Below the pieces are notes generated by a model. The model worked only from the letters and a program-made list of their open reading frames with translations, was not told the DNA's origin and searched no databases. From contig JBEKBM010000018.1 of the NCBI GenBank assembly GCA_050015395.1, positions 1 through 64,000 of the forward strand: DNA of 64,000 nt. Reading direction: 5' to 3'. Shown one piece after another: positions 204 through 3,535 of this stretch. Numbering within the stretch: the stretch's first letter is position 1; every line of letters begins with the position of its first letter. The DNA comes from Candidatus Bathyarchaeia archaeon. Lineage in GTDB: Archaea; Thermoproteota; Bathyarchaeia; Bathyarchaeales; Bathycorpusculaceae. The translations under genes were made by a program, and so were the position numbers.

Positions 204-243
204 TTACTAGTAAACTGGGGCTAGAATCCCACCCTCCTCACCA
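204..243 (+). repeat. att-like site copy 1: TTACTAGTAAA + degenerate tRNA T-loop and 3' end (Leu-like, ends CCA)
   Basis: The sequence is ttactagtaaactggggctagaatcccaccctcctcacca. Positions 204-230 match 3497-3523 at 24/27. There is no tRNA 5' half upstream. Confidence 0.65.
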
Positions 244-440
244 TATAAAAAATCAAATCATGGCTCGTTTTCAGCTTTTCTTGCGAGAAGAACTTACATA
301 ATTGTTGCTTGCGAGTCCTCTAATTTCCCCAACGCATCCTTAGTTTTTCTTCTTAGCCATGACTAGGAAGAGAGATTATTGGTAAAAAGGCATTGTACCT
401 ATCGAAAACTAAATAAGAAATCAGCGACAAAACAAGATAT

Positions 441-1451
441 ATGACAGACAAATGCGCTGGGCTACCCGTTCGCCGACAGCAACTTATAGTGTTCTTCTCG
501 GCAGATTTGGTGAATGCGACTGATTACAAGACGCGCCACCCCCCGGGTACGGAACCAACCGCGTGGCCTGGAAAATTTGAGAGGATCTTTCAATCGTTTC
601 ATGATGAGTTCTTGCATCAGATACAAACAAAACGAAGTGAACTAGAGCAACCAAGGCAGGCTACCTGTAATTTCTCGATGCCAAAGCTTTGGAAGATCAA
701 TGGAGACGAACTTCTTTACCGGGACTTTGTTTATCCAGGGGAGGAAAACGAAGGATTTCCGTCGTTTGTTACTTCGGTGAAAGCTTTCATTGATACAGTA
801 TCTTTGCTGGATTCAAATCTGCTCGAAGAGGACCTTGGCATCAAAGGCTGCGTGTGGACTGCCGGATTCCCTATTCGCAACAAGCAGATCAGCTTTAGAG
901 CAGAAACAGCTTCCCCTGTTATCCAGGGGAACTCTGACATCGTGGACCCTGACGCTGGTGACCCCAATAAGTCAATCATGAAGGATATTATCGATTATCT
1001 TGGTGTAGACATAGATCTAGGATTTCGGCTGTGTAGCAATACCCCTCCTGGCCGTGTCAGATGCTCCCTGGATGTCGCCTGGTTTCTAACCTTTGATCAA
1101 AACAGAAAGATGACCAATGTGTTCCACCTAGGCTGGACACGACTAAAAGGCGTTTGTGGTGGCAATCCATATCCACTACTACTGCTCAGTCAGGAAGGAT
1201 CTTTAAAGCCACGGACGCCATGGGAACCATCGGACGATAATACACTTGCCGAGCTTCGAAATGCACTCTCCAATTCGCTTAGACCACTATCTGTTCAGGA
1301 CGTCCGTGACTTAGCTGAGGAACTCTGGAAGACGCTGAAACTCTATCTTATCAAACCCTACGCATCTTTCAGCAGGATGCACCCAGCTCACACACCGATA
1401 TGGACAGACAAGCATGAGATTAAGACCCTGAAGGTCAAAAATGAGGATTAG
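441..1451 (+). CDS. Divergent class III nucleotidyl (adenylate/guanylate) cyclase-like protein
   Basis: Motifs occur in canonical order: FFSADLVNAT (FxDIxxFT, D22), WKINGDE (K85, G88-D89), DYLGVDIDLGFRL (DxxGxxVNxAxR-like) and LKG. Confidence 0.75.
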   Translation: MTDKCAGLPVRRQQLIVFFSADLVNATDYKTRHPPGTEPTAWPGKFERIFQSFHDEFLHQIQTKRSELEQPRQATCNFSMPKLWKINGDELLYRDFVYPGEENEGFPSFVTSVKAFIDTVSLLDSNLLEEDLGIKGCVWTAGFPIRNKQISFRAETASPVIQGNSDIVDPDAGDPNKSIMKDIIDYLGVDIDLGFRLCSNTPPGRVRCSLDVAWFLTFDQNRKMTNVFHLGWTRLKGVCGGNPYPLLLLSQEGSLKPRTPWEPSDDNTLAELRNALSNSLRPLSVQDVRDLAEELWKTLKLYLIKPYASFSRMHPAHTPIWTDKHEIKTLKVKNED

Positions 1452-1463
1452 TGAGGTACCAGA

Positions 1464-2546
1464 ATGTTTGTTCAAGAAGATGTGCTGAACCAGATTCAGC
1501 TTGAGTTGGCCAGGGACCTTAAGCTACGTGATGGTCTCGTGAATATTATACGTTCCATCGCTTTCTCAAAAAACTATCGGAGCTGGGAGGACTCAGAGCA
1601 GTTTGAAGGCTCCCAATTTCATCTCCCAGATAGCATGGTGTCTAAAAATGATTTCGAAGCTCGTCTTCTGAATAGGCTTGAGCTCGAACACGATGACCTT
1701 CTTCAGGTGAAGATTACAATCTTTGGAAACAAAGTTTTTCTTACTGATGGCCTGTGGGTTCCCAGTCAATTCAGGGTTTTCCCGTTCGCTGATGAGAGCG
1801 ATCTTCTTTCAAAGGCAATCCAAGACCTTGGCTGGCAAAAGTGGGCGACGACAATAATCGATCCTGCATGCGGCTGTGGCCACAATATGCTGAAGTATCA
1901 AGGAAGAGCTTGCCGAGTTGGCTTAGACATAAATACTAGAGCCATGAGCTTTGCGGCAATTAACCGCCTGCTGAACAGAGTCAGCAATCAAACGCCTGGA
2001 GGGTGCCTTATAGGACTTAACAATATCACTGAAGGCATTCCACTAGTTCTTCGTGGAAACTCAGGAGACCGAGTGCTTTTCATTGTTAACATGCCGTTCG
2101 CCATACAACCTGAGTCTGATGTTTTGCCGATAAGCGCAGACGGAGGACCGCATGGATATGAAATGACAATGGCTGCACTTGAGGCGATCCGCGGATATGA
2201 GGAATTATCCAAAGGCGCTTCCGTCCGTGCTGTGGTTTTAGTATACACGCTGGGAAATAGCGAAGAAGAAAGATGGTTCGTGCATGAAAAGGCGAAAAAA
2301 CTATTTGGTGATAACAGGGTTTCCTGGAAGTTGCTTCGTGACGAGAAGTTATGGCGCATTAACGGCAAAAAGGAACAAGAAAACCCTATGCCAATCACTA
2401 AGCTTCACCTTAAGGCAGACTGTAAATTCTATGTTCGTGACCCAAAGCGCAGAGACGAAGTTAGGAAACGATATCTTGAGTGCGAGGCGAAGCTTCAGAA
2501 AGAAGGATTCGATCATCTTGCATACGGTATTCTTTCGATTGATTAG
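1464..2546 (+). CDS. Class I SAM-dependent methyltransferase (HemK/MTS-like amino-methyltransferase)
   Basis: Motif I IIDPACGCG, motif II GLDIN, motif IV NMPF (NPPF-like) and SADGG. It starts 12 nt after the cyclase stop with a GAGGT RBS. Confidence 0.8.
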   Translation: MFVQEDVLNQIQLELARDLKLRDGLVNIIRSIAFSKNYRSWEDSEQFEGSQFHLPDSMVSKNDFEARLLNRLELEHDDLLQVKITIFGNKVFLTDGLWVPSQFRVFPFADESDLLSKAIQDLGWQKWATTIIDPACGCGHNMLKYQGRACRVGLDINTRAMSFAAINRLLNRVSNQTPGGCLIGLNNITEGIPLVLRGNSGDRVLFIVNMPFAIQPESDVLPISADGGPHGYEMTMAALEAIRGYEELSKGASVRAVVLVYTLGNSEEERWFVHEKAKKLFGDNRVSWKLLRDEKLWRINGKKEQENPMPITKLHLKADCKFYVRDPKRRDEVRKRYLECEAKLQKEGFDHLAYGILSID

Positions 2547-2693
2547 AGCTAACTTACTCCCGGTAAAGCGTGCTAGGTCAATTTACTGGTCGAATTGACC
2601 ATTGTCAAGGAGGACTGGCAGTCTTCCATAAAGTCAATTCAGTAGCAACTCCCATAGGCCGCTTAATCTGCTTGAGCCGACCTGCACGACTTA

Positions 2694-3191
2694 TCATAAG
2701 ATGATGGTTATTACTAGTGCTATAGTAGCCAACAAAGCCAAGACAAAAAAGGTTACAGCCCAACCAACTATCTCCAATTTCTTTTGGGCAACTTTCGAAA
2801 TTGACCATATTAGCTGACAAAGCTGAGCGCTAAAGCCGTCGTTATTTTTCATGGTTTCTTTAACACATATCAAATATGCATTAGCATCTCGTTTTTTTGC
2901 TATTTCAGTGAAGGAGACCACGTCACTTCCGGAAATTTGCACCACTCGTGGTAAGAGACAGCGTGCAGAAAAACTGGCAGAACTGATTATGAAAAAAACT
3001 GAAAGCGCGAGAGGAATGTACTCAATCGGTTTTCCGGCTAATAGGTTCCGCAAAGTGGTTGCATTGGAGAAATAAAACCCACTCATTATACCATCAACCG
3101 CTAAAATCGCTGTTGCTTTGGTATCTGCGAGACGCGTCAATTCATTTATAGCGTCGTAGACCTTCCATAAGTTCTCGTCTTTCTTGGTCAG
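2694..3191 (-). CDS. Pycsar effector-like membrane protein (PycTM/DUF5706-like); probable CTG start at 3191
   Basis: The frame extends upstream of the TTG at 3140 to CTG-TKKDENLWKVYDAINELTRLADTKATAIL. It has the ADxKA signature, hydrophobic helices, CLLPR, SFxxI, QLxxLIWxISxVAxKK and a C-terminal TM. A GGGGG RBS precedes the CTG. Confidence 0.75.
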   Translation of the reverse strand: MTKKDENLWKVYDAINELTRLADTKATAILAVDGIMSGFYFSNATTLRNLLAGKPIEYIPLALSVFFIISSASFSARCLLPRVVQISGSDVVSFTEIAKKRDANAYLICVKETMKNNDGFSAQLCQLIWSISKVAQKKLEIVGWAVTFFVLALLATIALVITIIL

Positions 3192-3495
3192 ATTTGTTGC
3201 CCCCTTATTTCTTTATTACTTGTTTTGTTGATAACTTCTTTCAAAGAATGTTACCACGTTGAGCTATCATGTTAGTAATTGAAATCATGTTCTCACTATT
3301 TTACTTTTATCCTCGAAGAGTTTAACTCTCGAGTTGCTATGACTGGCAAAAAATCTTTTTTACGGAAAGTGAAGACCCAATATGTTAAATTGAACGTGAA
3401 GGATTGACATCCAGTATTATGCATGCAATAGTTAACGCTTAAAGGTTTGCATATTGAAGCATCAAGCGTGGTTTTGTTTTTACTATAACAAAAGG

Positions 3496-3535
3496 TTTAC
3501 TAGTAAAATGGGGTTCGAATCCCTTCCCTGGCGCC
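3496..3535 (+). repeat. att-like site copy 2: TTTACTAGTAAA palindrome + tRNA T-loop and 3' acceptor strand (Ser-like)
   Basis: The sequence is tttactagtaaaatggggttcgaatcccttccctggcgcc, with an intact GGTTCGAATCC. There is no tRNA 5' half. Confidence 0.7.

Follow-up and report, generated by a model that had tools for sequence, protein, structure and literature searches.

Near the left end of an archaeal contig, a group of genes which includes no recombinase is bounded by two nearly identical repeats that continue as the 3' ends of two different tRNAs. How did such an arrangement arise? The DNA in question is contig JBEKBM010000018.1 (C18) of assembly GCA_050015395.1, Candidatus Bathyarchaeia archaeon. 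The window analysed here is the start of this contig and has a length of 64,000 nucleotides; the assembly comprises 2.59 Mb in 42 contigs and is 98.9% complete. The primase encoded in the window has homologues with 83-85% identity that carry the name Candidatus Bathyarchaeia. Genomes, further contigs and loci are designated by numbers with the prefixes G, C and L. We consider it likely that the repeats are attachment (att)-type junctions of elements which target tRNA 3' ends and belong to a genus-wide tyrosine-integrase lineage, the left junction being a hybrid site.

Two boundary repeats with different tRNA tails

Positions 204-230 (TTACTAGTAAACTGGGGCTAGAATCCC) and 3497-3523 (TTACTAGTAAAATGGGGTTCGAATCCC) of the window are direct repeats with 24/27 identical positions. 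Exactly three open reading frames (ORFs) lie between them, as a preliminary description of this DNA had stated; none of these encodes an integrase, and the enclosed cassette has a length of 3.25 kb (Table 1). The right site contains a perfect 12-nt palindrome. In the left site, which reads GTTACTAGTAAA, the first T of this palindrome is replaced by G, leaving a palindrome of 10 nt. Both sites agree up to the common ...GAATCCC and diverge thereafter. The left tail, AATCCCACCCTCCTCACCA, matches tRNA-Leu(GAG) of the same genome (C19:38771-38858) at 18/19 positions of the 3' end. The right tail is identical at 24/25 positions to a tRNA-Ser(CGA)-like pseudogene at C19:143-167, and at 25/26 positions to the 3' end of tRNA-Ser(CGA) in the close relative G004, where this gene is intact and contains an intron. 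The preliminary description had guessed a Leu-like left and a Ser-like right tail from the acceptor strands and had suggested a comparison with tRNA calls; both identities were borne out, the left one by a tRNA of the host and the right one by a pseudogene and a relative's gene.

Neither site possesses a tRNA 5' half, which had also been noticed before. ARAGORN found 0 tRNA genes in the window, and the search of the whole window against Rfam gave 0 matches at gathering score; at E <= 10, Rfam detected no tRNA in the region 1-4200 and produced a single chance-level match at 335-369. Because neither program finds a tRNA there, both sites are fragments of tRNA 3' ends only. The left T-loop (CTAGAAT) differs from that of the right site (TTCGAAT) and from that of the genome's tRNA-Leu(GAG) (TTCAAAT). 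Allowing for at most one mismatch, the 11-mer TTACTAGTAAA occurs 6 times on both strands of the window, compared to an expected number of 1.58; 0/100 shuffled sequences reached 6 occurrences.

Table 1. Positions of the sites, genes and further features at the left end of the window
Feature	Position	Strand	Remarks
End of a DDE (IS4/IS5-like) insertion sequence	1..140	-	transposase begins at 94 and continues beyond the contig start; terminal repeat GAGGGGTGTGCAT inward from 140
7-bp target-site duplication GTTAGTC	141..147	+	same 7 bp at the other end of the insertion sequence, C19:133-127
Left site	204..243	+	block TTACTAGTAAA-C-TGGGGCTAGAATCC(C) at 204-230, fused to the tRNA-Leu(GAG) 3' tail ACCCTCCTCACCA at 231-243
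336-residue homologue of class III nucleotidyl cyclases	441..1451	+	candidate signal-producing enzyme, Pycsar-like; structure-based
360-residue methyltransferase-like protein, weakly supported	1464..2546	+	NCBIfam 'putative methyltransferase', E 0.0011, far below cut-off
148-residue PycTM-type transmembrane effector	2694..3140	-	PF18967 PycTM E 3.5e-10, above cut-off; PADLOC PycTM 8.6e-18
Right site	3496..3535	+	TTTACTAGTAAA at 3496-3507, A, pseudo-T-arm TGGGGTTCGAATCCC at 3509-3523, tRNA-Ser(CGA) 3' tail TTCCCTGGCGCC at 3524-3535
Genome-specific spacer	3536..3703	+	first bases TACCGTTTTGGGTT resemble the downstream arm behind other sites
Archaeosortase gene	3665..4729		similarity to relatives resumes at 3704

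Distribution of the site in the genus

The conserved block shared by the sites is TTACYRGTAAA-N-TGGGGYTMGAATCC. A search of the 81 genomes of the genus with the 26-nt block TTACTAGTAAANTGGGGYTMGAATCC and at most 3 mismatches gave 72 matches in 35 genomes, whereas the reversed control gave 0; the block does recur, as the preliminary description had expected. For the comparison of tails, distinct sites were collected from the fetched loci by means of a regular expression with at most 4 mismatches, which also resulted in a set of 72 sites. A tail was assigned to a tRNA if it showed at most 2 mismatches over 14 ungapped positions. On this basis, 18 tails belong to Ser(CGA), among them that of the window's right site, 8 to Ser(GGA), 1 to Ser(UGA) and 1 to Leu(GAG), with the reservation that the site search demanded the conserved arm and the comparison of tails is biased in this respect. 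The sole Leu(GAG)-tailed site is the left site of the window. The same block is thus fused to the tails of four tRNAs, which, together with the tRNA-Ser loci described below, upholds the earlier suggestion that the repeats are scars left by a single recombinase family with several tRNAs as targets.

The centre of the palindrome reads ACTGG in 29 sites, ACTAG in 21, ACCGG in 3 and ACCAG in 2. These asymmetric centres argue against selection for the palindrome as such. In some complete sites, the tRNA-derived core is flanked by an inverted repeat (TTACTGGTAAA ... TTTTACCAGT), one arm of which is the palindrome. The sequence TTTTACCAGT, i.e. the inverse of the upstream arm, followed by a TTTTGAGCTTAT-like sequence, was found behind several complete sites as well as behind several tRNA-Ser genes. 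These two downstream motifs are enriched, with 11/85 and 24/85 flanks containing them compared to 1.4% and 5.5% of the controls, and are present at only a minority of sites. Single-stranded DNA folds were computed for six stretches (the two sites of the window on both strands, one G041 site, and the flank of the G016 tRNA-Ser(GGA)); none was better than shuffled sequences, with z-values from -1.03 to +1.23.

Cassettes and arrays behind tRNA-Ser genes

At 10 loci in 9 genomes (G038, G041, G058 with two loci, G016, G032, G072, G059, G004, and G051), an intact tRNA-Ser gene is followed by a cassette and then by a site, all on the same strand, and the tails of these sites are of the Ser(CGA), Ser(GGA) or Ser(UGA) type. 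In G038, three same-strand sites, spaced by 5.4, 2.6 and 3.6 kb, follow an intact tRNA-Ser(CGA); the array of G041 consists of three sites at 4.2, 2.2 and 3.3 kb; in G058, one site lies 8.6 kb behind tRNA-Ser(CGA) and another one ~30 kb further. Single cassettes of 0.9-4.7 kb are located between tRNA-Ser(GGA) or tRNA-Ser(UGA) and a site in G016, G032, G072, G058, G059, G004, and G051. The intervals range from 0.9 to 8.6 kb, and the cassettes of the relatives hold 1-5 genes on both strands. According to their ORFs, the cargo comprises a histidine kinase, a VapBC-like pair, helix-turn-helix regulators, a ZnuABC/NikR-like set, and a hybrid-cluster protein. We searched 15 intervals, each reaching from a tRNA or site to the following site (14 from relatives plus the one of the window), by means of tblastn, using two integrases of the genus as queries, and none contained a match at E <= 1e-3. 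In agreement with this finding, no PF00589 match was located inside the cassettes of the five genomes searched.

Two cassettes could be followed between loci. The ZnuABC/NikR-like cassette is the third one in the G038 array and the first one in the G041 array, with 84% identity over 3.1 kb. A cassette encoding a 144-residue membrane protein immediately follows tRNA-Ser(CGA) in G041 and tRNA-Ser(GGA) in G004; both copies are 90% identical over 729 bp, i.e. one cassette has been placed at two different tRNA-Ser genes. The similarity of these copies starts exactly at CCCGGCGCCA, which both tRNAs share. The mobile unit is therefore delimited on its left side within the 3' strand of the acceptor and not within the T-loop, where the preliminary description had put the boundary.

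The order of events can be read from G041: its three integrase-less cassettes separate the tRNA from an older element whose integrase is decayed, which indicates that the cassettes arrived later than this element. Junction modules inside one array are 94% identical over 139 bp, and left ends of ~200 bp are common to cassettes with different cargo; such a conserved left end occurs in only a minority of sites. Separately, we noted contractile tail sheath/tube-like genes, identified from N-terminal sequences only, on G058:C7 (L063:10135-13043) between the two sites which are ~30 kb apart; the site family may thus also bound larger elements.

Tyrosine integrases adjoining the sites

On G041:C11, a stop-broken tyrosine-integrase gene follows directly after the last site of the array and converges on it. 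The C-terminus of this remnant contains H-x-x-R, LGH and Y, followed by EAGFQYV. Decayed integrase genes end ~40-190 bp past three sites (G041:C11, G041:C1, and G055:C22). In G039, an intact tyrosine recombinase of 424 residues (L122:2227-3501, minus strand) converges on an intact tRNA-Ser(CGA), and the flank is the same as at the integrase-adjoining sites. NCBIfam places this protein among the tyrosine recombinases, below every equivalog cut-off; the model of integron integrases scored 58.9 bits, the cut-off being 265. The integrase family is present in 72/81 genomes of the genus, and at 19/30 fetched loci the integrase gene is convergent on a tRNA gene at a distance of ~40-90 bp. As determined by ARAGORN, the targets at the integrase loci are tRNAs for Cys, Ala, Arg, Ser, Phe, Thr, Leu or Pro. 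From this arrangement we infer that the integrase family found beside the sites makes the junctions.

Two further integrases were seen elsewhere. A frame-broken C-terminal remnant of the same family at G000 C12:77496-77816 (L065:3478-3820) converges on tRNA-Pro(GGG), ~40 bp off its 3' end. On G016:C6 (L068:12950-13931), an intact integrase of 295 residues begins immediately past a tRNA-Arg(CCT)-like 3' end and shares its strand, unlike the convergent layout of most loci.

The insertion and its flanks

The contig starts within an insertion sequence (IS). Bases 1-141 match the ends of C40, C42 and C11 at 90-99% as well as a full copy at C4:20814-21668, and the other end of the same IS family is located at the start of C19 (C19:1-126). 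The break at the start of the window is there because the IS occupies this position and splits the block. The gene at the contig edge had been a candidate for an integrase; it was rejected, as it encodes a DDE transposase. The IS has a length of ~1.1 kb and terminal repeats GAGGGGTGTGCA; copies were observed at the ends of C1, C11, C18, C19, C26, C31, C40, and C42, with duplications of 6-7 bp. The duplication at a second pair of IS ends (C11/C42 with C26/C31) has 6 bp.

In G004, G016 and G003 (94%, 89% and 88% DNA identity), the homologues of C19:632 and C18:3704 are only ~250 bp apart, and there is no tRNA between them. As the relatives join both flanks across this short distance, the block is a genome-specific insertion. 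Due to the synteny, the complementary IS ends and the 7-bp duplication, C19 (minus strand) and C18 (plus strand) are most plausibly neighbours separated by one IS. Viewed in this way, the genome-specific insertion would comprise ~4.2 kb plus the IS and lie between an L44e-like gene and the archaeosortase gene. Its components are, from left to right: ~380 bp of uncharacterised sequence, a decayed tRNA-Ser(CGA), A-TTTACTAGT, the IS, a stretch of 56 bp, the site with the Leu tail, the cassette, the site with the Ser tail, a stretch of 168 bp, and the archaeosortase gene. The decayed tRNA copy (C19:142-300) is located 71 bp plus the IS upstream of the Leu-tailed site; it is accompanied by the promoter-like sequence AAACGTTTTTACACCGCT, which also precedes the gene of G004, and has the anticodon loop CTCGAGA. 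An intact tRNA to the left of the window, for which the preliminary description had proposed to look, is missing; this decayed copy on the joined C19 is all that was found.

On the right side, the first 13 codons of the archaeosortase gene (3665-3703) are unlike those of the three closest relatives. That similarity begins only at 3704 indicates that the insertion replaced the 5' end of this gene together with its upstream region. The assembly contains no intact tRNA-Ser(CGA); a deleted 5' remnant of this tRNA is located at C20 ~53005 beside the rpL3 gene, which is the position of the gene in the relatives. A 5' remnant at the ancestral locus and the lack of an intact gene signal that a rearrangement around the sites has occurred. 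A comparison of G004 with this genome shows a breakpoint at the tRNA-Ser(CGA) of G004.

Proposed origin of the junctions

We propose that an element site consisting of an upstream arm, a tRNA-like core and a downstream arm recombines conservatively with the 3' end of a class II tRNA gene. Integration would leave an intact tRNA at one end and, at the other end, a junction of element arm and tRNA tail. Each site would then be composed of the element arm, i.e. TTACYRGTAAA, one base and the pseudo-T-arm, and of the 3' tail of the target tRNA. Repeated use of one tRNA would stack units head to tail, most of which would by now be short and integrase-less. Since the three Ser isoacceptors share TCCCGGCGCCA, one lineage could use all three of them. 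In order to generate the left site, a member of the family may have recombined with, or may previously have switched to, tRNA-Leu(GAG), which is another tRNA with a long variable arm. If such a Leu-tailed unit recombined with a resident Ser-type site, an exchange in AATCCC would place the Leu tail on the left and the Ser tail on the right. The IS would have split the block later.

These steps have precedents. Passages of PMC8371274 describe related archaeal integrases that switch between Ser and Leu tRNAs, the class with an extra arm, and archaeal elements that integrate in tandem at one tRNA and lose their integrases after integration. Arrays formed by tyrosine-recombinase elements which re-use one site are described in a passage of PMC6563490.

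Several findings weigh against this explanation. No functional tRNA adjoins the block: in the copy of tRNA-Ser(CGA) on C19, both the D-stem and a 5' end of the acceptor that could pair are missing. Furthermore, the empty site of the relatives holds no tRNA, which means that simple integration into a tRNA does not account for the arrival of the block at this position. The join of C19 and C18 is backed by synteny, IS ends and the 7-bp duplication, a spanning read not being part of this basis. Only 1/72 sites is Leu-tailed, and 44/72 tails match no tRNA with at most 2 mismatches; part of the latter differ through indels or decay, others are unrelated sequences that recur between genomes, e.g. in G075 and G076 or in G032 and G071. 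Neither the region 1-3800 of the window nor the joined end of C19 contains an integrase or a remnant of one: a very loose tblastn search of 1-3800 for integrase remnants (E up to 100) returned only noise, and there is no PF00589 match on C18 or C19, so that the integrase for which the preliminary description had proposed to look to the left of the window is not found on the joined contig. Each integrase directly adjoining a site is decayed, and the G039 element, whose integrase is intact, runs off its contig in a genome without a match to the block. Consequently, it is neighbourhood that links the integrase to the arm.

Alternative explanations

The lack of integrases allows for a further interpretation, which refines rather than excludes the proposed origin and which we regard as a tentative possibility. 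According to this idea, integrase-less cassettes are captured, stacked and exchanged among the genes of the three tRNA-Ser isoacceptors, and occasionally tRNA-Leu, by an integrase acting in trans; the pair of sites in the window would be both junctions of one cassette. Such a platform would be a tRNA-anchored functional analogue of integrons, of cis-mobilizable elements (CIMEs) or of pdif modules. It would account for 0/15 intervals with an integrase match and for cassettes free of PF00589, for the short intervals and their varied cargo, for the same cassette behind two tRNA-Ser genes and another one at different array positions, and for the late arrival of the three cassettes of G041. The 94% identical junction modules, the shared left ends and the enriched downstream motifs fit in as well. 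However, integrase loss after integration is the published and simpler account, as far as passages of PMC8371274 describe it. Moreover, the conserved left end is confined to a minority of sites, the fetched loci contain only two shared cassettes, and the similarity of the ZnuABC cassette stops short of the right-hand site.

Metagenomic contigs gave no sign of cassettes that move at present. All 24 listed peat and wetland runs (2017-2025) carry the whole stretch unchanged on their contigs. Neither a circle nor an empty site, the two joints expected from excision, was seen in the contigs of 4 runs, where it must be noted that contigs drop rare variants. Contigs of low depth which share only positions 3496-3535 represent other loci or strains. 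Taken together, these contig results are no evidence against excision. The cassette, for which no integrase is available nearby, is probably fixed now.

The Leu-tailed site could instead be due to homologous or illegitimate recombination, or to gene conversion, involving a Ser-type site and a fragment of tRNA-Leu(GAG) during the rearrangement by which the entire block was moved. The scattering of tRNA-Ser(CGA) parts, with the 5' remnant by rpL3 on C20 and 3' parts on C19 and C18, the breakpoint in G004, the uniqueness of the Leu tail and the position of the block at a place without a tRNA in the relatives would all agree with such an event. We nevertheless consider it improbable: the sequence switches exactly at AATCCC, which is common to both tRNAs, and is followed by the whole 13-nt Leu tail including CCA, as a conservative site-specific exchange would give; in addition, passages of PMC8371274 document a switch from Ser to Leu targets in a different family of archaeal integrases.

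It is very unlikely that the 26-nt block is a functional RNA or regulatory signal, e.g. a tRNA-like processing or termination element at gene ends, with the tRNA-like tails being incidental pseudogene fragments. The conservation of the block even next to the 44/72 non-tRNA tails and the T-run that often precedes it are compatible with this function, but the block has no Rfam match, its folds resemble those of shuffled sequences, and it marks the limits of insertions and of shared cassettes, forms arrays behind tRNA genes and is abutted by integrase genes. Finally, the absence of an intact tRNA-Ser(CGA) from the assembly and a palindrome that could in principle self-pair might suggest split tRNA genes, the sites being their 3' halves and TTTACTAGTAAA the leader that pairs for trans-splicing, a notion we deem extremely improbable, because the fragments begin at the T-arm and lack the 3' strand of the anticodon stem and the variable arm, the left T-loop deviates from the right site and from tRNA-Leu(GAG), no 5' half with a complementary trailer was found apart from the deleted remnant on C20, and the sites of relatives adjoin intact tRNA-Ser genes.

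Relation to known systems

The pT26-2-related plasmids of Methanococcales are similar in several respects: passages of PMC8371274 describe an att core that is the 3' part of a tRNA, an integrase convergent on the adjoining tRNA, tandem integration, integrase loss, and Ser as well as Leu tRNAs as targets. The sites studied here differ in their Bathyarchaeia host, in the mostly integrase-less units of 1-5 kb, and in the block of TTACYRGTAAA and pseudo-T-arm. Bacterial CIMEs and the site-specific accretion of elements derived from integrative and conjugative elements involve att-flanked islands devoid of recombination genes; these are stacked at the target site and can be mobilised in trans by the integrase of a resident element. 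In contrast, the cassettes of Bathyarchaeia belong to another domain of life and another integrase lineage and have no conjugation genes, and their mobilisation in trans is only hypothetical.

As a second option, the preliminary description had considered an integron-like array. Stacking does occur, with cassettes in threes in G038 and G041, and the recombinase-less cassettes in one orientation beside a fixed site as well as the adaptive cargo, including defence, resemble integrons. An integron proper was rejected, since there is no IntI-type integrase and no attC-like folded site, the anchor is a tRNA gene, and the multigene cassettes carry genes on both strands. Presumably, the cassettes of this site family possess their own promoters.

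Elements that target tRNAs, accrete in tandem and lose their integrases are of a known kind, whereas this family is not yet described; the literature searched contains no description of the sites, supplementary tables, which possibly list att sites, being outside this search. The block provides a recognisable att-site signature for a family of integrative elements in Bathyarchaeia, which are abundant uncultured archaea of sediment and peat. By means of this signature, accessory islands can be delimited, such as the Pycsar-like module of the window or toxin-antitoxin pairs, metal transporters and regulators elsewhere. The hybrid would be a second example of a switch between Ser and Leu targets in the class of long-arm tRNAs. 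If it is true that the cassettes move in trans, they would constitute a new archaeal platform of gene capture and a functional counterpart of integrons, which would spread genes for defence, toxin-antitoxin pairs, transport and regulation.

Predicted function of the cassette

The first protein of the cassette (336 residues) has no match in Pfam, PADLOC or NCBIfam, including the PycC model. Its AlphaFold model (pLDDT 67.7, pTM 0.74) matches the catalytic domains of adenylyl and guanylyl cyclases, with E 2.8e-9 and a probability of 1.00 for 1wc3_B and a TMt of 0.72 for 1ybt. The search of Atlas structures agrees on the cyclase fold; the look-alike clusters are bacterial, and the sole organism name among the sequence homologues is that of a bacterium. 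Asp 22 and Asp 89 are invariant in 13 homologues; we take them to be the metal ligands. The second protein (360 residues) has no Pfam match and, by sequence, no match in the PDB; it carries DPACGCGH and NMPF, which presumably are motifs of S-adenosylmethionine-dependent methyltransferases.

The likeliest reading of the cargo, predicted from sequence and modelled structure, is a Pycsar-like defence module. As in Pycsar, a PycTM-family effector adjoins a protein with the fold of a class III cyclase. Unlike in Pycsar, the cyclase does not match the PycC model, a methyltransferase-like gene lies between cyclase and effector, and the effector is encoded on the opposite strand; moreover, the host is an archaeon here, although the look-alikes of the cyclase are bacterial. 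There is no second copy of the cassette in its own genome, and the 30 relatives have no similarity to it beyond the site itself. The 336-residue protein has no relatives among genome contigs. Among metagenome contigs, one locus (L091) is identical over the matched gene, and this contig ends at the same IS boundary; P0002, a homologue with 71% identity, is encoded on a contig of 4.8 kb.

Related sites outside the window

Many tRNA 3' fragments exist outside tRNA genes in this genome, and more copies of the site family are located on C19 and C7. The copies at 12.2 kb and 16.2 kb of C19 were considered as the ends of an integrated element; this was rejected, because they are part of a 765-bp segmental duplication. 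The duplicates (G000 C19:11527-12258 and 15587-16335) are 78% identical and span the 3' ends of two paralogous genes, whose secreted products have ~870 residues. Downstream of each duplicate lies a decayed site of the family with the conserved flank CACTTGGAAAGACTAAGC, and the gene of a TrmB-like regulator is found in between; G004 also contains the duplicated unit.

A second family of hybrid sites, the arm of which reads TGCGGGTGAAATCTCC-N-GGGTTCAAATCCC, was observed at G000 C3:64640, C25:47668, C39:15434 and C31:22218. Its members are fused to differing tRNA tails (Leu(UAG)-like and Arg(CCT)). On C25, three fragments lie within the 6 kb behind tRNA-Arg(CCT).

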